24,337 nt of DNA from positions 18,257 through 42,593 of the forward strand of contig JBJCIZ010000327.1 in the NCBI GenBank assembly GCA_051294375.1, given 5' to 3'. Positions 1,720 to 20,970 of the stretch are shown piece by piece; position 1 is the first letter of the stretch; every line of letters begins with the position of its first letter. A program made the translations under genes and the position numbers. The stretch is from Paraspadella gotoi (Eukaryota; Animalia; Chaetognatha). Under the pieces are notes generated by a model. It was not told the origin of the DNA, did not search any database, and saw only the letters and a list, made by a program, of their open reading frames with translations.

Positions 1720-1876
1720 CTGGAAACTATTTTTTGCCCGCACCGACTGCAGCCTCCAGCTCCGGCCAAGATAAGATCTCAGCTCACTCAGCTCCGACTC
1801 GGTAGAAAATATTCAGCTCCAAGCTCCAGCTCCAGCAATGGCTCGACCCAGCTCCAGCTCCAACTCCACATCCCTG
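1720..1876. mobile_element. One end of a non-autonomous hAT-like DNA transposon (CAGCTC subterminal repeats, terminus ...CTCCACATCCCTG)
   Basis: Homologous to 13570-13770, with the same terminus (reverse complement CAGGGATGTGGAG). CAGGG termini with hexamer subterminal arrays are typical of hAT MITEs. The other end was not found. Confidence 0.65.
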
Positions 1877-4437
1877 ACCCATCCAAGCACGTTCTATGTC
1901 CATGTATCGTATGAAGGATCTTGACACTTTCCCCAAGGATGACAGCATAGTTGAACATGATGGTATTGGTTAAGACGCCCAGTGGAAGGCTCCAAACCCT
2001 AAAGGAGCGCTACACAGGTTGACAGTGAGACGTTCATCCTCATCTAGAGGCAAACAATTAACAACCCGAGGGTATATTAGATATAACCGTTCAGTAATAC
2101 ATATATATTATTATTGTATAATATATATAAATGTAATATATGATCTATACATAATATCAATTTCTAAATGATTTGTCCTTTAATTTCACGCATTAATATT
2201 TTATATAAATCATGTTTGGACAATAGGGGTGAATGAGAAATTTTTTCTATAAAATTTACAATTTAACATATAGAAATAAATAAAACAATAAATATTTAGT
2301 CAAATTATTTTTTAATTCATATACTTTATGTACCAGTGAGCTATATTTAATATATAGGTAATAAGTAAATAATAGGCTAAAGCTTTTAAAATACAAATTT
2401 TTAAGATCGGATTAGGATTCTTACAAACATTAATATTAAAAATATAATTCTTTATATTTTTTCTCCTGATCATATAAGACCAAGATGAAAGCAATAAGCT
2501 AACAACTGGGTTAACGGGCCATTCTTGTGAATTAAGTACAGATGTTGGGTTGGCACACGATCGTCCAAAAAAAATCCTATGCAATGATAAATTTGAAAAA
2601 TAATTTAGCTGTCGCAAATAAACTTTCATTTTTTTAACAAATATAAATTTTTAACATTATTTTGTTATTTATTAACCTATAATTACAATGCTGGAGGCAG
2701 TAAATAAAAAGTTATAACATTTTTTAAAAATTATTAGTTTGAAACGCAAACGGTTACAGAGTAAAAAAAAAAATGCTAAGAAAACTACATTTTAATGTCA
2801 AAGGTTTTAACAAAAACTTTGAAAAACAGCATTTACTAAATGATCTTAACCCCAATGGGTTTTAAGATGTATCGCATCCATCTCCTACAAAATCCCATAT
2901 TTCAAAAAATAAGTCTGGGGCGATTTAAATATCGAAATTTGATACATGGTTATGTGTTAAGGACAGAAACCGAGCGTCAAGTATAAGCCAGTCTCTGAGC
3001 TACCGGATCAGCGCTGTAAGACCGTGTTAACAAGCGGGTTAACGCCCCGTCCCTCTTAACCTTTGGTTAGGGAGGACCAAATGACTTTGCCATCCGGCAC
3101 AATGGCCGCCTGATGAATCGGTTGGTGGATTTAGTCCACCATAAGAGGAACAATAAATATTCTAAATTTGTATTTGTTTTAAAACATATTCAAACGCAAC
3201 ATTTTTGTTTTAAAAATGTAAGATTGCAGCCGATTCTGAGATGAGACTTCAAAGGTCTTCGGTGAGGGCCAGGAAGAAAGAATGTAACTCGATTTCATCA
3301 ATGGGAGAGAGTATAGTGGTAAGTTATAAATGCTCAAATTAGTCATCTTCAAAATAACGGTAAGAAGATGAGGGTACTCATCTTCTTGAAATATATCCCT
3401 ATAGATCTACACAATTATTCATTGAAAATACAATCTCAATTAAAGGTGAAATAAAGATGACAGATACAAGGACAGTGATTGAGGATTACGGAGACATTGA
3501 TAACATACGAAGGAAAAAATGATGCGCAGGAGGACGGATTGGACCGCGCGGAGGACGGATTGGGACGCACGGAGGACAGATGAATGCAACGTCGGCTGAT
3601 TGGACGCGCGGAGGATGAAGTGGAGAATGGATTGTTGACAATGCGGCATAGTTGAATAAGAAAACCAGAGACATGTAAATATTAACTCTTATTTCTTTTT
3701 TAAAAATATTAAATAATTTTTATTCTAATCTGATAAAAACAATATTGATTAAATATTTAAAATATGACAGAATTTATATTTCAACTCTTATTAATAAATT
3801 TAAAATAAAAAATAATTTTTTATTCATTTTATGTAGTCGTGCATTGCGGCAAGGATCACCCTGCTATAAGCATGACAACCTTTTGAATTTTGGACCCGGA
3901 AGCTTATTGATAAACTGAGCTCGGATTATTAAATGATTTTCATACCAAACAGTACCAGACTTTTCAATGAAGTGTGAGGATGGTCAGTTTCATTGCTGTT
4001 AGGGGACAAAAGGATTTAAAAATAAGTAATCTTCAGCCCAGCTAGCGCCTTATCCACATATAAACAATTTTATGTTGTGATTTTATAAGTAATGGTTTAT
4101 AGTTTACCTTCGTCGACTGTAATAATACAGCTACGTTTAATTTTCTGATATCCTACTCTCCACGGAGTTGCCAATAAATTAATTAATTATTACTTATATA
4201 AAATTATCTAATTATTTTTAATACGTTTTTAAAAAAATCAAATGGTGCAGCTTTTTACACTAGTTATAAGTAATACTAAAACAGATAAACAATTGCGAAA
4301 TAAGGGTAAATACAAAAAGTTCATTTAAAGCTTAGCTCGCTTTGCTTGGTAAACGATTCCCTCTCTGTTGTTATTGTGAGCAAAAACTGGACTGGCAGTG
4401 CCAAGTCCGTCCTGCCGTGAATCAGGGGCGCCGAGCC
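1877..4437 (-). repeat. Inverted copy of 8343-10867
   Basis: The reverse complement aligns at both ends (acccatccaagc vs gcttggatgggt; gaatcaggggcgccgagc vs gctcggcgtcctgattc) and internally. Differences are mostly small indels. Confidence 0.92.
3832..4058 (+). mobile_element. Decayed solo LTR (subfamily A) of the tRNA-bearing TRIM
   Basis: Starts TGTAGTCG and ends CCTTATCCACA. Shares CTATAAGCATGACA, GACCCGG and GCGCCTTATCCAC with the LTRs at 16967-17879. Flanks TTTA/TATA match at 3 of 4 positions. Confidence 0.75.
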
Positions 4438-4439
4438 AT

Positions 4440-7293
4440 GTCATCAAATTTCGATATTTAAAGTCGCCCCAGACTTATTTTTTTAAAAATATGGATTTTG
4501 TAGGAATGGATGCGTTACATCTAAACCCATTGGGGGTAGATCATNNNNNNNNNNNNNNNNNNNNNNNNNNNNNNNNNNNNNNNNNNNNNNNNNNNNNNNN
4601 NNNNNNNNNNNNNNNNNNNNNNNNNNNNNNNNNNNNNNNNNNNNNNNNNNNNNNNNNNNNNNNNNNNNNNNNNNNNNNNNNNNNNNNNNNNNNNNNNNNN
4701 NNNNNNNNNNNNNNNNNNNNNNNNNNNNNNNNNNNNNNNNNNNNNNNNNNNNNNNNNNNNNNNNTTTTTACTCTGTCACCGTTTGCGTTTCAAACTAATA
4801 ATTTTTTAAAAAAGTGTATAACTTTTTATTTACTGCCATCCAGCAATNNNNNNNNNNNNNNNNNNNNNNNNNNNNNNNNNNNNNNNNNNNNNNNNNNNNN
4901 NNNNNNNNNNNNNNNNNNNNNNNNNNNNNNNNNNNNNNNNNNNNNNNNNNNNNNNNNNNNNNNNNNNNNNNNNNNNNNNNNNNNNNNNNNNNNNNNNNNN
5001 NNNNNNNNNNNNNNNNNAACCCAGTTGTAGCTTATTGCTTCATCTTGGTCTAATGATCAGGAACTACTAAATAAAGAAAAAAATAAAGAATTATATTTTT
5101 TAATATTAANNNNNNNNNNNNNNNNNNNNNNNNNNNNNNNNNNNNNNNNNNNNNNNNNNNNNNNNNNNNNNNNNNNNNNNNNNNNNNNNNNNNNNNNNNN
5201 NNNNNNNNNNNNNNNNNNNNNNNNNNNNNNNNNNNNNNNNNNNNNNNNNNNNNNNNNNNNNNNNNNNNNNNNNNNNNNNNNNNNNNNNNNNNNNNNNNNN
5301 NNNNNNNNNNTCACCCTATTGTCCAAGACATGATTTATTATAAATATATGTGAAAATTAAGGAAATCTTTAAAATATATATGTATCTATATATATTTATA
5401 TATATTATATATATATGTACTGAAGGTTATACTTATAGCAACAAACTGGGTTGTTAATGTTGCCCAGATAGGATGAACGTCTCCNNNNNNNNNNNNNNNN
5501 NNNNNNNNNNNNNNNNNNNNNNNNNNNNNNNNNNNNNNNNNNNNNNNNNNNNNNNNNNNNNNNNNNNNNNNNNNNNNNNNNNNNNNNNNNNACATACGTA
5601 CAGTGTACATAGAACGCTTGCTTGGGATGGGTCTTAGCCATTGACATTGACTGTAGAAGGTAGGAGGTAAGGCTGTATAAGGCTAAATTTAAGCATAAGC
5701 GGCTAGTTGGCCTGAAGAGGATAATCTGNNNNNNNNNNNNNNNNNNNNNNNNNNNNNNNNNNNNNNNNNNNNNNNNNNNNNNNNNNNNNNNNNNNNNNGG
5801 TTTATGGCCTTCCGCATCCCATTCCATTGGGCATTGATTGTAATGAGTGAAGGTGTTATGCTTATAAGCAGGGTGATCTTAGGCTTCCATGGCGAGTAAT
5901 TAACCGAAAAGATGCAGNNNNNNNNNNNNNNNNNNNNNNNNNNNNNNNNNNNNNNNNNNNNNNNNNNNNNNNNNNNNNNNNNNNNNNNNNNNNNNNNNNN
6001 NNNNNNNNNNNNNNNNNNNNNNNNNNNNNNNNNNNNNNNNNNNNNNNNNNNNNNNNNNNNNNNNNNNNNNNNNNNNNNNNNNNNNNNNNNNNNNNNNNNN
6101 NNNNNNNNNNNNNNNNNNNNNNNNNNNNNNNNNNNNNNNNNNNNNNNNNNNNNNNNNNNNNNNNNNNNNNNNNNNNNNNNNNNNNNNNNNNNNNNNNNNN
6201 NNNNNNNNNNNNNNNNNNNNNNNNNNNNNNNNNNNNNNNNNNNNNNNNNNNNNNNNNNNNNNNNNNNNNNNNNNNNNNNNNNNNNNNNNNNNNNNNNNNN
6301 NNNNNNNNNNNNNNNNNNNNNNNNNNNNNNNNNNNNNNNNNNNNNNNNNNNNNNNNNNNNNNNNNNNNNTGATGGTTAATGATAATATTTAATTACAATT
6401 ACATATTTTAAAAAACATTAGCAAAGTTAACATCAAATTTATTTGGCACAATGTCACTTCATAGTTTGACATTTGTCAAACCAAGTCTCAGANNNNNNNN
6501 NNNNNNNNNNNNNNNNNNNNNNNNNNNNNNNNNNNNGAGCACCGGTTGCTTCGTCAGAACCTTCCAGGCATCTCCTTATTGCTCAAACTTGTTTAGATCA
6601 ATGATTAAAATGGTAAGTAAGAAAATAATGGNNNNNNNNNNNNNNNNNNNNNNNNNNNNNNNNNNNNNNNNNNNNNNNNNNNNNNNNNNNNNNNNNNNNN
6701 NNNNNNNNNNNNNNNNNNNNNNNNNNNNNNNNNNNNNNNNNNNNNNNNNNNNNNNNNNNNNNNNNNNNNNNNNNNNNNNNNNNNNNNNNNNNNNNNNNNN
6801 NNNNNNNNNNNNNNNNNNNNNNNNNNNNNNNNNNNNNNNNNNNNNNNNNNNNNNNNNNTCATTTAATTGTAAAGCAATTTGGGCTAACCCTGGTGGGCGA
6901 AAGTAAAATTAACCCCCAATTGGTATTAAATTATCATCAAATCACTTATTTAAGTNNNNNNNNNNNNNNNNNNNNNNNNNNNNNNNNNNNNNNNNNNNNN
7001 NNNNNNNNNNNNNNNNNNNNNNNNNNNNNNNNNNNNNNNNNNNNNNNNNNNNNNNNNNNNNNNNNNNNNNNNNNNNNNNNNNNNNNNNNNNNNNNNNNNN
7101 NNNNNNNNNNNNNNNNNNNNNNNNNNNNNNNNNNNNNNNNNNNNNNNNNNNNNNNNNNNNNNNNNNNNNNNNNNNNNNNNNNNNNNATTTTTTCGTCGTT
7201 TTTTGCCCATAACTTTTGAACGCGTGAACCGATTTTAATGAAATTTTATTTCGGTAAACTAGACGTAATTCCACGTCGATCGGTACCAAATTT
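4440..7293 (+). repeat. Heavily gapped direct copy of ~9799-12320
   Basis: The non-N islands match 9.8-12.3 kb in the same order (e.g. 6370-6492 vs 11436-11558; 6860-6955 vs 11885-11980). Confidence 0.92.
5674..5900 (-). mobile_element. Divergent LTR-like element (subfamily C), gapped duplicate of 10909-11133
   Basis: The motifs ggctagttggcctgaaga and gaaggtgttatgcttataagcagggtgatctt are shared with the TRIM LTR family. Confidence 0.55.
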
Positions 7294-8079: not shown

Positions 8080-8711
8080 TTCCCAGCGTTTTCAGTATCT
8101 CCGTTGTATTAACTTTTTTTTGGGCGCCGCCTCCTTCGCTATCCTTGGTTCATTATTTCGCGCCGCTGCCATCGCCTTTCTTAGCGACTTCACAGCGCGC
8201 GCGACTCTCGTTCTCCCGCCGAGGAGACTTTTATGGGCAAGCTTTAACGATCGGGCTCGCTCCGTGCCGCCGCCGCGCGCGACGCCTTTCCAAGACCAAG
8301 GCTTCTCTAACCCGCCACCGAAGCCCACTCTTCCCTGTACTTGCTCGGCGTCCTGATTCACGGCAGGAAACGGCTTGGCAACTGCAGGCAGTTTTGTGCA
8401 ATAACAACGGAGGGAATCCGTTTACCAAGCAAGCGAGGCTAAGCTTAAAATGAACTTTTGTATTTTACCCTATTTTCGCAATTGTTAATTCTGTTTTAAT
8501 ATACTTATAACTAGTGTAAAAAAATGCACCATTGATTTTTTTAAAAAAAACGTTTGAAAAATAATTAGATTAATTATAAAGTAAATAATTCATTTAATTT
8601 ATGGCAAACTCCGTGCGGACAGAGTAGGATATTCAGAAAATTAAACGTAGTGTATTATCAAGTCACGAAGGTAAACTAAACCATATATATCAAACATAAA
8701 ATTGTTTATAA

Positions 8712-8935
8712 TGTGGATAAGGCGCTAAGGTGTGGGCTGAAGATTACTATTTTTAACTCTTTGTCCCCTGACCAGACAATGAAAACTGACCATCCTCACA
8801 CTTCATCGAAAGTGGTAACTTTTGGGATGAAATAGTTTAATAATCGAGCTCCAGTTTACTCAATAAGGCTTCCGGGTCAAAATCAAAGGTTGTCATGCTT
8901 ATAGGCAGGGTGATCTTGCCGCAATGCACGACTAT
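8712..8935 (-). mobile_element. Decayed solo LTR (subfamily A), the same insertion as 3832-4058
   Basis: The plus strand reads tgtggataaggcgct ... gtcatgcttataggcagggtga ... gcacgacta. Homology to 16967-17213 stops at the same two boundaries. Confidence 0.75.
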
Positions 8936-10908
8936 AAATGAATAGAATTTTTTTTTTTAATTTATAAATTGATTTAATTTTTCAATATTTTTAAAAGTAT
9001 TTCTAAATCATATTGTTTTTTATCAGATAGATAAAAATAATTTAATATTTTAAAAAAAGAAAGAGTAATTTAACCAATGTTTTTGGTTTTCCCTTTATTA
9101 ACTATGCGATTGTCAACATCCTCTCCCTTCCATCCTCCGCGCGTCCAATCAGTCGCCGTGACATCCGATCGTGTCCTCCGGCGTCCATCCGTCCCTCCGC
9201 GCGTCCAATCCGTCCTCCCGCGGCATTCAATATTTTTCTCGTATGTTATCAATGGGGTCCCCGTAAATCCTCATCACTGTCGCTCTTGTATCGTCATCTT
9301 TATGTTCACCTTTTTTCAAATTGAGTTGATTTCAATTGATAATTGTGTAGATTATTATGATATATTTTCAAGAAGATGAGTACCCTAATCTTTTCTTACC
9401 GTAATTTTGAAGAAATTGGACTAATGAGCATTTAATAAACTTACATATAACTTCTCCATTGATGAAATCGAGTTAAATTCTTTCTCCTGAGCCCTCACCG
9501 AAGACCTGAAGTCTCATCTCAAATGGCTGAAATCTACATTTAAAATAAAAATGTTGGTCTTGAAATGTTTTAAACAAATACAAAATTTAGAATATTTATT
9601 GTTCCTCTTATGGTGGACTAAAATCCACCAACCGTTCATCAGCGGCCCATTGGTGGCCGAGGCACGTCATTGGCCTGCGCAAACCCAAAAGGTTAAGAGG
9701 GACGTTTGGGCGCTTAACCGCCTGTAACACGTTTGACAGCTGATCCGTAGTCAGAGATGCTTATTATTTGAGCGGTTCTGTCAACTAACACAATGACATT
9801 CATCAAATTTCGATATTTAAACGTCGCCCAGGGACTTATTTTTTTAAAATATGGATTTTGTAGGAAATGGATGCGTTACATCTAAACCATTGTGGGGTAG
9901 ATCGCATTTAGTAAATGCCTGTTTTTCAAAGTTTTTGTAAAAACCTTTGAATTAAATGCTAGTTTTCTTAGATTTTTTTAGCTCTGTCACGCGTTTGCCG
10001 TTTCAAAACTAATATTTTTTAAACCAGTGTATAATTTTATTTTTACTGACATCGCCAGCAATTGTAAATATGGTTAATAATCACAAAATAATTGTTAAAA
10101 ATATATTTGTTAAATAAATGAAAGTTTAATTTGGACAGCCCTAATTATTTTCAAATTTATCATTGCCATAGGAATTTTTTCTGGACCCGATCGTGTCCAA
10201 ACCCCACATGTATTATAAAGAATGGCCGGTTAACCCAGTTGTAGCTTATTGCTTCATCTTGGTCTAATGAATCAGGACTACTAAATAAGAAAAAAATAAA
10301 GAATTATATTTTTTAATATAATGTTTGTACCCAGAAATCTAAATCCGATCTTAAAATTTGTATTTTTAAAAGTTTAGCTCTAATTATTTATTATTACTAT
10401 ATATAAAATATAGCTCACTGGTACATACCAGTAAATGAATTAAAAAATAATTTGACTAAAATAGTTTTTATTTGGTTTTTATTTTTATGTTCTATAATGT
10501 TCAATTGTAATTTTAAAATAAAAAAAATTTCTCTCATCACCCTATTGTCCAAGACATGATTTTTATAATATAATGTGAAATTAAGGAAATCTTTAAAATA
10601 TAATATGGTATCTAAATATATTTATAGTATATTATATATATATGTATCTGAAAGGTTATACTTATACGCAACAAACTGGGTTTTAATGTTTGCCACAGAT
10701 AGGATGACGTCTCCTGTCACCTGTTAACGTTTAGGGGTTTTGGAGCCTTTTTCCACTGCGTTTAACCAAAATACTATCATAGCTTCAACGTTCATGCCAT
10801 ACCTTTGGGAAAGTTGTCACGACTGTACAATAACGTACAGTGTACATAGAAGCTTGCTTGGATGGGTCTTAGCCATTGACATTGACTTAGAAGGTGGAGG
10901 GTAAGGCT

Positions 10909-11133
10909 TGTATAAGGCTAAATTTAGCATAAGCGCTATTGCCTGAAGAGGATAATCTGTACTTTTTAACCCCCTTGCCAGCAATGGAACAATACCTTGG
11001 GGGGGGGGGGGTTACCTCACCCAAAGGCGGTTTATGGCCCTTCCGCATTCCATTCCATTGCGGCATTGATTGTAATGAGTGAACAGGTGTTATGCTTATA
11101 AGCAGGGTGATCTTAAGCTTCCATGGCGAGTAA
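10909..11133 (-). mobile_element. Divergent LTR-like element (subfamily C) lacking the tRNA-like module
   Basis: Retains ataagcgct..gcctgaaga, aacccccttgccagcaatggaac, ggcggtttatggcc and gtgttatgcttataagcagggtga in the same order as subfamily B. Termini are approximate. Confidence 0.6.
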
Positions 11134-13569
11134 TTAAAAAACCGAAAAGATGCAGATCAAAAGACAAAGATTGCTTCTCAGCAAAAAAGACGCAGGGATG
11201 ATTCGCCGCAAAGACGCGGGATGATTCATTTCGGAGATAAATGCTTGATCTGGCATTCTTTATGAACTGGGTCCATGTAATTGTTTTATATTATTTGATA
11301 ACAGCTTTGTTTTTTTTATTGTCCATTTTAATCAACTGTTCAATAAGCTTTTACCGTTTTTTGTTTACTTAATAAGGGCTACTTTAGTCCAGTTACTGAG
11401 CAAGATTGTAAATTCCAAAAGTAATTAAATATCATTGATGGTCATGATAATATTTAATTACAATTACAAATATTTTAAAAAACATTAGCAAAGTTAACAT
11501 CAAATTTATTTGGCCAAATGTCACTTATAGTTTGACATTTGTCAAACACAAGTCTCAGAAAAAACGCCTTCGGGAATTTTGCGCACCTCTGTGGAGCCTT
11601 TCGGCGAGCCACCGGTTGCTTCGTCAGAACTTCCAGGGCATCTCCTTATTGCTCAGACTTGTTTAGATCATGTATTAAAATGGTAAGTAAGAAAAAAATA
11701 GAAAACGATAGTAAGAAGGTAAGGTCAGTTAAAGTCAGTAGCTTACCTTGGTTAAATGTCAAGTTAAGACTTGATTAAGGTCAGTATCCTTGTGCGGTCC
11801 GTTATTGATAAATTAGGACTAAAGAGGCACTGGTGATGAATGAAAGTGGCAAATGATCAAAGAGGTCGCCACGGAAGTTGTTGTCATTTAATTGTAAAGC
11901 AATTTGGGCTAACCCTGGTGGGCGAAAGTAAAATTAACCCCAATTGGTATTAAATTATCAATCAAATCACTTATCTAAGTTTTTTATTAGTAATCAATAA
12001 TCACTTTATTCTTTTATGAATTTGTTTCCCTATACCCAATATTTCTTCTCCGTATTCAGCTCCGTAATTTTCCGTTTATTTCTAATTGGCCCGGAAGAGG
12101 ATTTCGCTTTACCGTTGATTCAGCTCGGACTAAGGAATTAGTAACTACGTAAGTTCAATCTTATGTTAACCACTTTTTTGCTCGTTGAAGGCGGCGAAAA
12201 GTTGATCCTCGAAGGCGCTATTTTTTCGTCGTTTTTGCCATAATTTTGACGCGTGCACCGATTTTAATGAATTTTATTTCGGTAAATCTAGACGTAATTC
12301 CACGTCGATCGGTACAAATTTATCGAATCGAGCCACGAGGAAAAAAAGACATGTTTTCTCTATGTTATGCTAAAGATTTTTTAAAATGCATGATTTTTTT
12401 TAATTACATATACAAAAGCAGCAAAAATATTGTTAACTCTCTTAATCTTTTTCATCACTCCACACTAACTACTATACATGATCTAAAAACATAAGTTTCC
12501 CCTTTGACACTATAAATAATCATTCCTACAGCATATAAAATGACGTAATGACACTAACGATGTCGTGACCTTATAAAAAATTCAAAGACATACAGCACAG
12601 AGAATGGCGTTATAACGATATTGACACTATAAATTAATAAAAATGTCGCAATAATGATGACCGTGACCCAATAAAAAAATGTTATTGCTATTGCTATACT
12701 GAAAATGATATAACACAAAAAAGACTTATCGACTGATGTTGACCATGATGCAAACAAAATAAACAAACCAAACATAATAAGTCACTCGAAAAGACATACT
12801 ACATACTAAACATAAATGACATATGAATCTAAAGGACAAATGATTTAAAAAAATGATAAGTATGACTTTGATATAATTGACTTGGGTAAATTGACTAACG
12901 TAAAAAGAATAAATAACCATCACCAATGACCAACTAACCATGACATAAATTTGATGTAAAGTTTAATAAACTGAAAGTGGTCATAATTTAAAGTAAACTA
13001 AAAGATAAGCGAATATATTATAAAATAAACTAAAAGGTGTAATAATAAGTGGCATAAATAAGTAATATAATTTAGATAAATAACCTAAAATGATGCCACT
13101 TGTCTTAAAATACGTTAATGTTAAATGTATAGGTTAGAGTTATAAGGTTGTAAGGTTGCCTAAGTTATAATAAATAATAATAATAACGACAAGTTAATAA
13201 CAATTTTGAAAATAATGTTATGTTACACTTTAAAGACTTTTCTTATTTAAGTTTACGAAATTTTGTTAACTAAGTTTATATTTGTCACCAACATTTAAAT
13301 CTATTATTTTACGTATACTTATTTAATATCAATTGTAAATGTGTCACTATGAAGCAATTCAAGCTTAATTTTAAAGGAAAAAATATTTTACCATGTTCAC
13401 CGCTTAACATTTAGATTATGCAAAAATTGCAAATTATAATTTGGATTTGATTTCAAATCTATACTGGAACAAACAAGAGACAACGTTTTAATAAATCTTT
13501 TTTTCCTTCTGAAAAAATTAATATTATTTTTTTCATTTTTATAAATTTTATTATTTCCAAAATTTTCTT

Positions 13570-15844: not shown

Positions 15845-15875
15845 TAGATTTCTAAGAACGACGTAGACTCCTAGA

Positions 15876-16370
15876 TTAGGGTTGAGGCACGGAGATGTAC
15901 GGGAGGCCTGGGCCCGGTTTAGGGTTAGGGTTGGGAGAGAGGCCCGTGAGTTATATATCGAAGGCGATTAGGGTTAGGGTTGAGGTATGGAGATGTTAGG
16001 GAGGCCAGGCCTGGGTTAGGGGAGAGGCATGGAGTTGAACGGGAGGCTCGGTTTAGGGTTAGGGTTGGGAGAGGGCCCGTGGTTGATGCATCGAAGGCGG
16101 TTAGGGTTAGGGTTGAGGCACGGAGATGTATGGGAGGCCGGGCCTGGGTTAGGGTTAGGGGAGAGGCATGGAGTTGAACGGGAGGCTTGGTTTAGGGACA
16201 GGGTTGGGGAGGCGCCCGTGGTTGATGCATCGAAGGCGGTTAGGGTTAGGGTTGAGGGATGGAGATGTACGGGAGGCCCAAGGCCGGGTTTAGGGTTAGG
16301 GGAGAGGCACAGAGTTGAACGAGAGGTCTAATTTGGGTTAGGGTTGGGAGAGGAGCCCGTAGGTGATGTT
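15876..16370 (+). repeat. Composite TTAGGG-containing higher-order repeat (133-139-bp unit of three ~45-bp monomers)
   Basis: Monomers a (TTGAGGCACGGAGATGTACGGGAGGCC), b (GAGAGGCATGGAGTTGAACGGGAGGC) and c (TTGGGAGAGGGCCCGTGGTTGATGCATCGAAGGCG) each follow (TTAGGG)1-2. The order is a-c-a-b-c-a-b-c-a-b-c, with units starting at 15968, 16101 and 16240. Confidence 0.92.
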
Positions 16371-16490: not shown

Positions 16491-16966
16491 ACCAACTCGA
16501 ACCAAGGATTTATTACAAACATTTTTTCGACCTTTCATTGATTTGCCATGGATTTATCTCTACAAAAATACAAATACATAGTGACAATTTTACAAGCGCC
16601 GGTAAAAATATGCTGTCATTTGCAAACCAATGGTTATTTCATTAATTTTTGAGTTGAGTAGAAAATACTAAAACTATTTATGTGTTAAAATTTTATATTG
16701 ATCAGTTAAGATATGCCTTGACAATGAGTGGAGAAAGTTGGCTTTCATTTTCCAACTCACTGTTTTTAACTTTTAGCACTTTTTTAAACAAAGTATTTAA
16801 TAAAATATTAATAATATTAATATCCTCAGAAAGCCCTTAAAAATATAAAGAGATTGATATACTTACGAAAGCTCTAACATAAAAATTAAGCTGCCCAGCC
16901 TTGGTTCAATTAAGAGTGTCAAAAGTGAATTATTTAAAATTTTAATCTTTTTTCAAAATATATGAC

Positions 16967-17213
16967 TGTGGATAAGGCGCTAAGTGGGCAGAAGATGACT
17001 ATCCGTAACTTCTATAACCCCCTTTAGTAGCCATGGAACGGGTCCTGGGCTTGGAACCAGGCTTGAGGGGTTGCCACGCCCCCAAGGCGGCTTACGGGCG
17101 TCCTCACGCTTCCCGCAGGGTAGGTACCAGGTTGGGATTGAACTGAGCCACCGGGTCAGGACTGAAGGTGTCATGCTTATAGGCGGGGTGAACCTAGGCA
17201 ATGCCCGACTACA
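16967..17213 (-). mobile_element. Solo LTR (subfamily B) with a 4-bp TSD (TGAC) and a 38-bp internal deletion
   Basis: TG..CA termini (TGTGG/CTACA), with TGAC at 16963-16966 and 17214-17217. The deletion between 17143 and 17144 removes the middle of the tRNA-like module. Confidence 0.8.
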
Positions 17214-17428
17214 TGACTAGTACCTACCTTTAGCTAGATACCTCATCTTCCCAGTGACGCCCAATCAGGCCTCTCCCCAAGGTTTAACCTTCCCAGGATT
17301 AAGTTTCCCTGCTCTACCGACTAACTGGCTAACCACCATGGAACGGGTCCTGGGCTTGGAACCAGGCTTGAGGGGTTGCCACGCCCCCAAGGCGGCTTAC
17401 GGCCGTCCTCACGCTTCCCGCAGGGTAG

Positions 17429-17500
17429 GTACCAGGTTGGGATTGAACCCGGTACCTAGTGGTCATGAGCTGATGGCTTTACTCAATGAGCCACCGGGTC
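17429..17500 (-). ncRNA. tRNA-like (Met-CAT-like) Pol III module inside the LTR; not a functional tRNA
   Basis: GACCCGG TG GCTC ATTGAGTA AAGC C ATCAG CTCATGA CCACT AGGTA CCGGG TTCAATC CCAAC CTGGTAC: 72 nt with exact cloverleaf spacing, A box and B box (GGTTCAATCC), but the anticodon and T stems are mismatched. TATAAG lies at -24. Confidence 0.75.
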
Positions 17501-17558
17501 AGGACTGAAGGTGTCATGCTTATAGGCGGGGTGAACCTAGGCAATGCCCGACTACATG

Positions 17559-17593
17559 CTCCCCAGATTGTAACCCACCCTGCACTGCTTCCA
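17559..17593 (-). promoter_or_regulatory. PBS-like (17593-17578) and short PPT-like (17564-17559) motifs of the TRIM
   Basis: A TGG-initiated tract directly abuts the 5' LTR. GGGGAG lies 2 nt before the TG of the 3' LTR. Confidence 0.6.
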
Positions 17594-17752
17594 GTGGATA
17601 AGGCGCTAAGTGGGCAGAAGATGACTAATCCGTAACTTCTATTAACCCCCCTTTAGTAGCCATGGAACGGGTACTGGGCTTGGAACCAGGCTTGAGGGGT
17701 TGCCACGCCCCCAGGCGGCTTACGGCCGTCCTCACGCTTCCCCGCAGGGTAG

Positions 17753-17823
17753 GTACCAGGTTGGGATTGAACCCGGTACCTAGTGGTCATGAGCTGATGG
17801 CTTTACTCATGAGCCACCGGGTC
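17753..17823 (-). ncRNA. Second tRNA-like module (5' LTR)
   Basis: Same as 17429-17500 with one base fewer in the D-loop. Confidence 0.72.
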
Positions 17824-17879
17824 AGGACTGAAGGTGTCATGCTTATAGGCGGGGTGAACCTAGGCAATGCCCGACTACA

Positions 17880-17980
17880 TGACTAGTACCTACCTTTAGC
17901 TAGATACCCATCTTCCCAGTGACGCCCAATCAAGGTCCCCAGGATTAAGTTTCCCTGCTCTACCGACTAACTGGCTAACC
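17880..17980 (+). repeat. Duplicate of flank 17214-17334
   Basis: tgactagtacctacctttagctagatac..ctaactggctaacc is repeated, with an indel of about 20 bp. Confidence 0.9.
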
Positions 17981-19184
17981 GACAAACCTCCCAACCCACC
18001 CTAATTTTTTTCTTCCTTCTTTCCTAATCTTAATTTTTTTCATACTAATTTTTTTTTCTTATTTTCCTCGCGCAAAAAAAAAAAATTCAACTAATATTTC
18101 ACAAAAAACTTCATCGCGTAAAAACGTTTGAAAAAAAAATTTGTTTCTTCAACTCAACAACAAAGGAACAAGACGAAAAAAAAGGGAACTTTGCCAATGC
18201 CCATCTCATAAATCAAACAGTAAGATCACTAACCCACCATTTTTCTTTTTAGCTAATCCGGGACATTTAGTGTTGTACTGTGACATATTGAAATCATAAT
18301 TTCATTTTTGTTGCAATAAAATGTAATGTATTTTCCCTAGTTTTCTTCCTCACTGTTTTACAATTTCCCTCAGTCTCTCTTACTTTATTTCCATTTCAAA
18401 CGGAATTGCCCCTATTAAATTTCCTTATTGACCATTCCTCTTACTTTATTATTTGTCTCTCTATTTCAAATATATTTTCCTAGTTTCATTAATTGGCTTC
18501 TCTTTCAACTTTTTCCTCACTGTTTCAATTCAATCTTATATTGCCTCATCATCCTACCCCGCACATTATTTCAGTTCTAATCTGTACTATTATTGTTTCA
18601 TTTTAACCCACTACTCCTTTTTCATAGTTCCACTATTATACGTCGCACAGTATTTCAATTTCTATCTCCCTTCTCAGTGATTTACTATTTCAACATCTAT
18701 TTAGATTCTTATTGCTACACAATTTTACCTCACCATTTCGAATTTTCTTTACTTTTTCAACGCACAATTTCGATCTTTTCTCTCTTTTTACTTAGCCTTT
18801 CATCCTTTACAACTTCTTTCCCCCCCTCTCTTTCACCGATGGATTCGAATCGTGCATTCTTTTACTAACCCTCCCCTCCTTGACCCGTGAGTCGATCCTC
18901 GATCCCAGCGTCTTTTTTTTTCGCGCATTTTCTTCATTTGCTCTTCTTCCTGGCCTCCTCTTCTCTCTTCCCTTTACGCTGCGCCTCTCTCTCCTCATCC
19001 CTTCCTCACTCGAGAAAACAGCTGCGCAGGGAGGAATGTCCTTGTCCATGGTCTGATCAAACGACGACCCTCCCACAAGCCCTGGCCCCTCACTGGTCCC
19101 CTCACTCGATGCTCAGTGCTCACCCTCTCTCTCTCCCATTTCGACTTCCAAACCAAAAAAAAAAAAAAAATCGTTGACCGCTCC

Positions 19185-19567: not shown

Positions 19568-20224
19568 ATGGATACCATTCAATATGAGGATGAATACTCT
19601 CAATTTTATGAGGAAGCTCCCTGGACCGACGTTGTTTCCCAATCTATTTCAAACAAAGAAAACAGGTTTGAGAAATTAGAAAAGGTTCTACTAGACAAAA
19701 TAGTAGGCGTGTATGAGTCCAGAATAGATCAATGGGATACAAGATATTCACAACTTCGATCTTTGTACGACAAAAGAGGAGACGGACTTCTTGAGAGCAA
19801 ACAAAAGCTCTATGACATAACCCAAGAGCTAAAAGAAACTAAGGAGGAACTAGCAGGGATGAAAAACCAGAATGAAAAAATTTCACAAATTCAGTTTAAA
19901 CTTGACAAAGGAAAGAACAAACTTTGCAAAAAAGAACAGGAACTCTATGACATCAAGAGAGAGCTAAAGGAAAATAAAGAAAAACTTGCAGAAATGAGAA
20001 ACCAAAATGATAAAATTTCAAAAATTCAGTTGAAACTCGAAAAAAGAAACAAGGAACTTAGTGAAAAAGAACAAGAACTTTGCAACATAAAGCAAGAGCT
20101 AAAAGAAACAAAGGAAAAGGTCGCGCGAATGGAAATTGGAAATATAAAGGTCTCACAGTCACAAATAAAGCTGGATGTAAGAAAGATCATGGCAACTATA
20201 CAAAAAAGAAAGGATCTGAGCTGA
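19568..20224 (+). CDS. 218-aa coiled-coil protein with a 45-aa tandem repeat; probable N-terminal part of a gag-like gene
   Basis: ATG 19568 follows a polypyrimidine-CAG. 135-bp repeats start at 19802, 19937 and 20072 (Q(K/E)LYDI..ELKE.KE.LA.M.NQN.KIS.IQ.KL). The sequence is K/E/L/Q-rich. Confidence 0.6.
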   Translation: MDTIQYEDEYSQFYEEAPWTDVVSQSISNKENRFEKLEKVLLDKIVGVYESRIDQWDTRYSQLRSLYDKRGDGLLESKQKLYDITQELKETKEELAGMKNQNEKISQIQFKLDKGKNKLCKKEQELYDIKRELKENKEKLAEMRNQNDKISKIQLKLEKRNKELSEKEQELCNIKQELKETKEKVARMEIGNIKVSQSQIKLDVRKIMATIQKRKDLS

Positions 20225-20536: not shown

Positions 20537-20970
20537 CGCTGTTATTTTTGTTTGTAAAAATCACTCGATCACATTCAGTGTTTTCAGTTACAGTAAACTA
20601 CTTCAGAATGTTCATGACAAAAAAACAATTTGCCAACCACCACCGACTTTGTTTCCATTGTTTAACGCCTGGTCATATCTCCAGGCATTGTCAGTCAAAT
20701 CGTCGTTGTGTTGTCTGTAATGTGTTTCACCATTCCTCACTTCACGATTCATCTTTCCAAAAATTTCCCAAAAATAGGTCAATACGGAATGTACAAACCT
20801 CTGCCTTAAAAATTATCTCTGAGACACCCTCCATCTTAAATTCTATGACGTCAGCTTTACCAGAAAGAACAACTCTAACATCAACATCAACTCCGACATC
20901 AACAGCACCTTCAACCCCAACCACATCTTTAACGCCAGCAGAAATAGCTTCAACTCCAACACTAAAGTGA
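20537..20970 (+). pseudogene. BEL/Pao-type Gag zinc-knuckle region, interrupted
   Basis: LCFHCLTPGHISRHC-QSNRR-CVVCNVFHHSSLH matches the CX2CX4HX4C + CX2CX3HHXXLH pattern typical of BEL/Pao Gag. A broken first knuckle (RCYFCL*KSLDHIQC) lies at 20537-20581 in the frame of the upstream ORF. An S/T/P-rich tail follows. No pol was recognised downstream. Confidence 0.75.

Follow-up and report, generated by a model that had tools for sequence, protein, structure and literature searches.

A dispersed non-coding LTR element of Paraspadella gotoi with a tRNA-derived module and a predicted type-P5 twister motif in each LTR

What kind of element lies at positions 16963–17883 of a 24,337-nt stretch of the Paraspadella gotoi genome (the window), and how might its transcript acquire its ends? 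Reading the sequence alone had suggested a non-coding miniature LTR retrotransposon (TRIM) of ~610 bp, with two TG..CA LTRs of ~286 bp that each hold a tRNA-derived promoter. The locus is instead a rearranged array of three LTR copies, which read on the minus strand in the order flank X, target-site duplication (TSD), L1, a 37-nt internal region, L2, a second X with TGAC, L3 and TSD (Table 1). L1 has the proposed LTR length, but the pieces number three, not two; the array measures 921 bp from TSD to TSD, and an intact copy of ~610 bp is absent from the window. The proposed 4-bp TGAC duplication was found on both sides of the array, and the element is non-coding as had been stated, its longest ATG frames being 45 aa in sense and 72 aa in antisense. 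L1 agrees with L2 in 218 of 219 aligned letters and with L3 in 242 of 245 letters, so the copies are young. Both ends of L3 coincide with piles of loose ends in public contigs (16967 and 17213).

The duplicate of flank X marks either a local duplication or a mis-assembly. With its runs of N and an inverted duplicate, the window resembles a noisy long-read scaffold, so the layout may reflect either a true local duplication or faulty assembly. Flank X (17884–18030, 17218–17334) is itself a modest repeat containing an A-box-like stretch, seen by eye; its candidacy as a second tRNA-headed repeat was rejected, since no A/B box pair in it passed the test.

Table 1 Features of the array, in minus-strand order, and the phage twisters used for comparison
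Feature	Position	Strand	Remarks
Flank X, outer copy	17980->17884	minus	repeat also described over 17884-18030
TSD TGAC, element 5' side	17880..17883	. (on +)	from sequence
LTR copy L1 (5' LTR), 286 nt, TGTAG...TCCAC	17594..17879	-	adjoins PBS-like TGG; loose-end piles at 17879 and 17594
tRNA-derived module of L1, 71 nt	17753..17823	-	
Twister-P5-like motif, L1	17667..17745	-	predicted cut 17722/17721; outer P4 pair broken here
Internal region, 37 nt	17557..17593	-	PBS-like TGG start, purine run 17564->17559, then CA
LTR copy L2 (3' LTR), shortened to 221 nt	17336..17556	-	from sequence comparison with L1
tRNA-derived module of L2, 72 nt	17429..17500	-	A box 17493->17483, B box 17449->17439
Twister-P5-like motif, L2	17343..17421	-	predicted cut 17399/17398
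Duplicate of outer flank X, 117 bp	17218..17334	-	between L2 and L3
Third TGAC	17214..17217	.	travelled with duplicated flank X
LTR copy L3, 247 nt, TGTAG...TCCACA	16967..17213	-	38-nt deletion within tRNA part
Twister-like motif, L3	17116->17038	-	P1 loop non-palindromic
TSD TGAC, element 3' side	16963..16966	. (on +)	from sequence
Phage type-P5 twister above cut-off	L031:463-517		
Phage type-P5 twister above cut-off	L032:464-517		
Phage type-P5 twister above cut-off	L034:502-556		
Phage type-P5 twister above cut-off	L035:502-555		
Phage type-P5 twister above cut-off	L041:135-192		

The family was surveyed in contigs of public sequencing runs (X1, X2 and so on) aligned to the stretch; 12 of the 14 listed runs contain part of it, nine of these 12 being from one organism. 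The contigs aligned to the region in four runs of that organism number 7904, 8774, 3610 and 779, and loose ends pile up at 16967 in 88, 71, 69 and 13 contigs of four runs. Further piles lie at 17213, 17556 and 17879, beyond which the contigs pass into unrelated AT-rich flanks with an agreement of about 0.4. Other copies had been expected to have TG..CA ends and an LTR–internal–LTR layout, and contigs show both: the termini are sharp TG/CA ends without a tail in four runs, at dispersed sites, and the LTR–37 nt–LTR layout is seen. In runs X1 and X5 the summed depth is of the order of 10^5 over the LTR and 3-4 x 10^4 over the internal part, where ~15–40 is the reference for single long contigs and the sum is not a copy number. 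The survey suggests only that copies run into the thousands and that lone LTRs predominate; the family is a dispersed, very high-copy, gene-less LTR element. From a biofilm metagenome, 12 contigs of a diverged version align, and one metagenome contig, which shows 9 differences and a single gap, covers the tRNA part, the LTR start, the internal part and the junction. None of the contigs listed covers the entire stretch, and runs X13 and X14 gave no aligned contig, which is not proof of absence. None of the recorded runs that contain the stretch is listed as RNA. Run X9, guessed to be RNA, has a depth profile equal to that of the DNA runs, flanks included, and is therefore uninformative on expression.

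Another subfamily is set apart by a different 3' segment of the LTR (loose ends at 17598, 17338 and 17029); its tRNA part, twister motif and internal part are shared. Older LTR relatives of ~64–67% identity lie at 3831–4058, 8712–8936, 5845–5884 and about 10900–11140 of the window; they represent one solo TG...CA copy and one more diverged copy, each doubled by the scaffold duplications. The TSD is a perfect 4 bp at the locus and matches in 3 of 4 letters at the old solo copy, as judged by eye in noisy sequence. A 6-bp TSD starting with CA, which would go with an LTR ending in TTATCCA, was rejected, the loose-end consensus having no fixed letters there.

The internal region contains the 37-bp spacer and the PBS-like TGG and PPT-like GGGGAG (followed by CA on the minus strand) described earlier, but GGGGAG reads GGGGGG, through a change at 17560, in nearly all contig depth. 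Contig cover of the internal part is deep and its junction is gap-free in independent contigs, the metagenome included. The 5' LTR, L1, ends in TCCAC and runs directly into TGG, lacking the final A of the integrated end TCCACA (window 17590–17598), and this TCCAC/TGG junction is free of gaps in contigs of X3, X5 and X10. Positions 17575–17584 of the internal part can form 10 bp (-17.3 kcal/mol) with LTR positions 17421–17430, which lie just 3' of the tRNA part; self-priming by this pairing was rejected, as it is not located at the TGG end. The internal part also contains GTTACA, which resembles a Gypsy-type LTR end. The PBS-like start has no match among the PBS/tRNA pairs of Fig. S2 in the available part of the Helenus paper (PMC10886601).

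The sequence-only reading placed a 72-nt module with tRNA spacing, a CTCATGA loop and TATAAG at -24 in each LTR. The spacing and loop are present in the module at 17500->17429 and TATAAG is present at the locus, but the module is complete in L2 only, being 71 nt in L1 and truncated in L3. It has TRGCY and GGTTC and lacks the YGG of box A. Against the general A- and B-box consensus the two boxes, separated by 44 nt, have 2 mismatches between them, a fit equalled by 15 of 5000 shuffled LTRs; the boxes at tRNA spacing therefore exceed chance. The Rfam tRNA model gave no match at E<=10 on 91 nt. ARAGORN likewise found no tRNA in the module, and the stems pair at 5/7, 3/4, 2/5 and 2/5 positions, the two last values being those of the anticodon and T stems. 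A functional tRNA is thus rejected, and the findings support the view that the module is tRNA-derived and promoter-like, its boxes kept and its fold apparently lost. In the single metagenome contig that covers TATAAG, 4 of its 6 letters are changed, and it is doubtful that TATAAG is a required element. The sense strand contains no run of three or more T in 913 nt; chance alone often leaves a sequence without TTTT, as in 3528 of 5000 shuffles.

The sequence-only reading overlooked a second structured element: just 3' of the tRNA part, each LTR has what sequence and pairing identify as a type-P5 twister motif. In L2 its strands are ordered P5, P2', GAGGA, a palindrome (17406->17399), UAA, the P2 strand, GC, P3 and P4, with a P2 strand of 3 nt, a P3 of 8 bp and a P4 of 5 bp closed by the UUCCAAGC loop. 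P5 and P4 can be paired by hand over 5 bp each, and the L4 loop and the two pseudoknots pair as well. All three copies have the catalytic G of GAGRN, the UAA cut strand, the L4 loop and both pseudoknots. Two features are short: P1 has 1–2 bp as a monomer and 6–8 bp as a dimer, and P2 has 3 bp with a bulged partner where type P5 would lead one to expect 4 bp. The outer arm of P1 is missing, so that an 8-nt palindrome remains. As a side observation, the PBS start resembles the P5–P2' strand of the twister motif as a direct repeat.

The Rfam Twister-P5 model (RF02684) matches all three copies across its full length at 15.5–17.2 bits (16.8 bits in one of them; E 0.11 on 111 nt), all below the gathering cut-off of 37.6 bits, and an Rfam scan of the whole window gave no Twister-P5 match. 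The score is penalized for a 22-nt insert, which by hand is the 8-bp P3 hairpin, a helix absent from the model. A descriptor that follows the domain table in the available part of PMC8501958 and ignores P2, P3 and P5 was matched by 6 of 200,000 shuffled LTRs, and by none of 200,000 once a lenient P2 was required, a setting chosen after the sequence had been seen. Rfam models gave no hammerhead match in the element; the twister motif occupies that position in the LTR instead.

Phage twisters of type P5 provide a direct comparison (Table 1). The 18-nt P4–L4–P4' of the window motif occurs exactly at six places in viral contigs, four of which are Twister-P5 matches above the cut-off (49.6–53.2 bits); these four share the GAGGA, UAA and GC strands with the window motif, and three of them also share the CGG...CCG base of P1. 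Strand order, the L4 loop letters and both pseudoknots are likewise the same as in phage type-P5 twisters. The window motif differs from them in a P1 cut to a palindrome, a 3-nt P2 with a bulged partner, an added 8-bp P3 hairpin and a score far under the cut-off. In a scan of the viral contigs for a short P1 with a 3-nt P2, neither of two matches scored as a twister; with a short P1 and a 4-nt P2, four of nine scored, and the only one of type P5 has a long P1. All 29 matches to a family-specific twister pattern in the metagenome were unrelated, none aligning to the LTR. Viral contigs L038, L044 and L046 also hold type-P1 twisters below the cut-off with strong E-values. A high-throughput study of natural twisters describes, in its available part, defects in P1, P2 and P4 as tolerated and catalytic or pseudoknot defects as not (PMC11662667); the letters of the intolerant class are intact in the window motif.

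Variation among copies was read at the 79 positions of the motif, ten of which vary in at least 5% in either run. Five of the variable sites fall among the 17 free positions (Fisher p=0.03). Three of the five stem changes keep the pair (P2 G-U to A-U, P3 G-U to G-C, P5 C-G to U-G); at one further stem change, in a single contig, a neighbouring change keeps P2, and one change breaks the last pair of P3. None of the ten variable sites lies in the 17-nt core (P=0.07), a result that is not significant alone; these numbers are modest, and the copies share ancestry.

On balance we judge it somewhat more likely than not that this non-coding TRIM, which has an A/B-box module and then a type-P5 twister motif in its LTRs, works in a retrozyme-like way; the twister motif in each LTR shifts the likely life cycle from that of a plain TRIM to a retrozyme-like one. 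Pol III would start near 17823 in the 5' LTR and, there being no terminator in the element, would read into the 3' LTR, so that the transcript would take in the first twister, PBS, PPT and second LTR. The twisters, perhaps acting as a pair through the palindromic P1, would cut at U^A, at the two sites given in Table 1, and release a 323-nt unit, which may be closed to a circle by a host ligase as in plant retrozymes (PMC4918200, PMC7761336, in their available parts). A linear RNA cut at both sites would lack terminal redundancy, and a circle would let reverse transcription rebuild two LTRs: tRNA-primed synthesis around it could remake LTR–internal–LTR, and integration would leave 4-bp TSDs. 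The copying enzyme would be a presumed Gypsy-type partner, an element borrowed from the Helenus and retrozyme papers. Self-cleavage is a prediction here, and we infer Pol III use, ligation, priming at the PBS-like site and an autonomous partner. The predicted 323-nt circle is no more stable than shuffles (z -0.9).

Several features tie the element to Helenus (TRIMp3; Kojima 2024, PMC10886601), which in the available text spans 311–1263 bp, with an internal part of 43 nt in zebrafish LTR-11_DR: (i) it is a non-coding TRIM whose size is within that range; (ii) the TSD at this locus has the 4-bp length of animal Helenus; (iii) its LTRs have A and B boxes (TRGCY, GGTTC) without a working tRNA fold; and (iv) PBS-like and PPT-like ends flank a short internal part. 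The present family differs in that the LTR places its tRNA part in the 5' half, leaves ~160 nt beyond it and lacks a T run; each LTR also has a twister motif, whereas the available text of PMC10886601 names ribozymes in one citation only. The comparison with Helenus is supported for the non-coding nature, the high copy number and the A/B boxes in the LTR, but not for a plain two-LTR element at this locus. Viewed as a TRIM with a tRNA part, the element is a new family within a known type; the ribozyme motif is its distinguishing feature. Five of six short family or twister motifs have no match in the available supplement of PMC10886601, where line breaks can hide matches; 'ttccaagc' is absent from it, and 'tcccaagc' occurs once, unrelated. 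In that same supplement, two wasp LTRs (Helenus-2_SyJa-LTR and Helenus-2_SyUm-LTR) have, by eye, a tRNA part and then a full type III hammerhead whose loops I and II are complementary, on which the available text is silent; they give a precedent for a design of tRNA part plus ribozyme.

Plant LTR retrozymes, as described in the available parts of PMC4918200 and PMC7761336, are alike in having a ribozyme in each LTR, a PBS and PPT, a 4-bp TSD, no coding capacity and a predicted unit-length RNA between the cuts. They differ in that the ribozyme here is a twister and not a type III hammerhead, the host is an animal, the internal promoter is of tRNA type and the predicted unit is 323 nt instead of 600–1000 nt, with cleavage and a circle only predicted here. 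The element may thus resemble an LTR retrozyme in its likely working while falling outside the definition, which names a type III hammerhead per LTR; the accessible part of a July 2026 preprint describes LTR retrozymes as bearing type III hammerheads and as mainly plant elements (10.64898/2026.07.22.740005). A 2020 review, in its available part, refers to unpublished insect elements that carry type III hammerheads (PMC7761336). Schistosoma Perere-3 carries T-variant twisters that are likewise linked to a retrotransposon and tolerate a weak or missing P1, but these are type-P1 twisters that occur singly, at a non-LTR element's 5' end (PMC8501958, available part), whereas here type P5 recurs in each LTR. 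Literature searches in a mostly open-access collection gave no report of a twister in an LTR element or of an animal LTR retrozyme.

A bolder version of the retrozyme-like reading, which we offer tentatively and would not call probable, is that of an LTR retrozyme in an animal genome, one that carries a Pol III promoter of its own and whose twister cuts only when the motifs of both LTRs pair through the palindromic P1. The analogy is with short-stem hammerheads of Penelope-like elements, whose stem is a short palindrome through which tandem copies could pair (PMC6765202, available part); the ribozyme class and the element class are other, and dimer action is here predicted only. By folding, the palindrome duplex has -14.1 kcal/mol, and the dimer MFE keeps it together with P5, P3 and P4. 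A swapped dimer with P2 enforced lies 9 kcal/mol above the dimer MFE, for two cores and with pseudoknots uncounted. The palindrome is absent from L3. Were such pairing-dependent cutting real, full-length copies would release the 323-nt circle and lone LTRs would stay mostly uncut, and a natural twister that requires a partner would be new ribozyme biochemistry.

An ordinary Helenus-type TRIM holding a captured twister that is now a dead relic, replicating through linear RNA with a normal R region and strand transfer, seems to us unlikely, though it is the first alternative to be weighed. The Rfam score below the cut-off and the short P1 and P2 agree with it, and in the monomer a rival hairpin is ~6 kcal/mol more stable than the twister fold, while all four phage twisters fold correctly at MFE. 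Most published Helenus LTRs in the available supplement, inspected by eye, are without a ribozyme, and the old solo copy at 3831–4058 (duplicate 8712–8936) lacks most of the motif. Against it, the motif retains every catalytic and pseudoknot letter, and variation falls by preference in loops and in pair-keeping changes, a pattern that extends to the diverged metagenome version; and the segment 3' of the motif, again by eye, differs far more between copies than the motif itself.

We consider it improbable that the twister is active but weak and forms the 3' end where a T-run terminator would otherwise do so, giving linear RNA and no circle. The first cut would then be escaped and the second made, leaving an R region of ~100 nt from the tRNA start to the cut site. 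The sense strand, free of any run of at least three T, would suit such a role, as would a rival hairpin that could delay the first cut, and many published Helenus LTRs have, by eye in the available supplement, a T run after the B box. Against a difference between the two cuts, both motifs are identical in sequence and upstream context, and a palindromic P1 suits simultaneous paired cutting. That the element is a tRNA-SINE or tandem satellite, its LTR look accidental and its layout the product of mis-assembled noisy long reads, draws on the N runs and long ~80% duplicates of the window (1876–4436 against 8343–10868) and on the lack of a listed contig across the whole stretch, but it is very improbable and already largely refuted by the sharp, tailless TG/CA termini in four runs and by the internal part and junction in independent contigs, metagenome included. 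An artefact, if there is any, may concern the local three-copy layout only.

If the retrozyme-like reading is true, retrozymes would gain an animal host, a second ribozyme class and a defined promoter, the polymerase being a point that the available part of the retrozyme review does not settle (PMC7761336). Retrotransposon twisters have otherwise been described from 5' ends of non-LTR elements. The reading would also suggest one way in which RNA ends are set in a Pol III TRIM that has no T-run terminator. Together with the wasp hammerheads, a 'tRNA promoter plus interchangeable ribozyme' would then be a recurring design that links TRIMp3 and retrozymes.

Elsewhere in the window, 1876–4436 is repeated in inverted orientation at 8343–10868 with 79.5% identity, and 4436–7293 consists of N-separated blocks; the ~80% duplicates and runs of N indicate that the assembly retains uncorrected redundancy from long reads. 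On the plus strand, a 217-aa coiled-coil frame made of 135-nt repeats (19571–20224) has no Pfam family above the cut-off, and a 140-aa frame (20548–20970) has a weak zinc-knuckle match (E 0.034, under the cut-off) and is possibly a fragment of a retrotransposon gag. A TTAGGG-rich tandem repeat with a unit of ~133–141 nt occupies 15870–16368.
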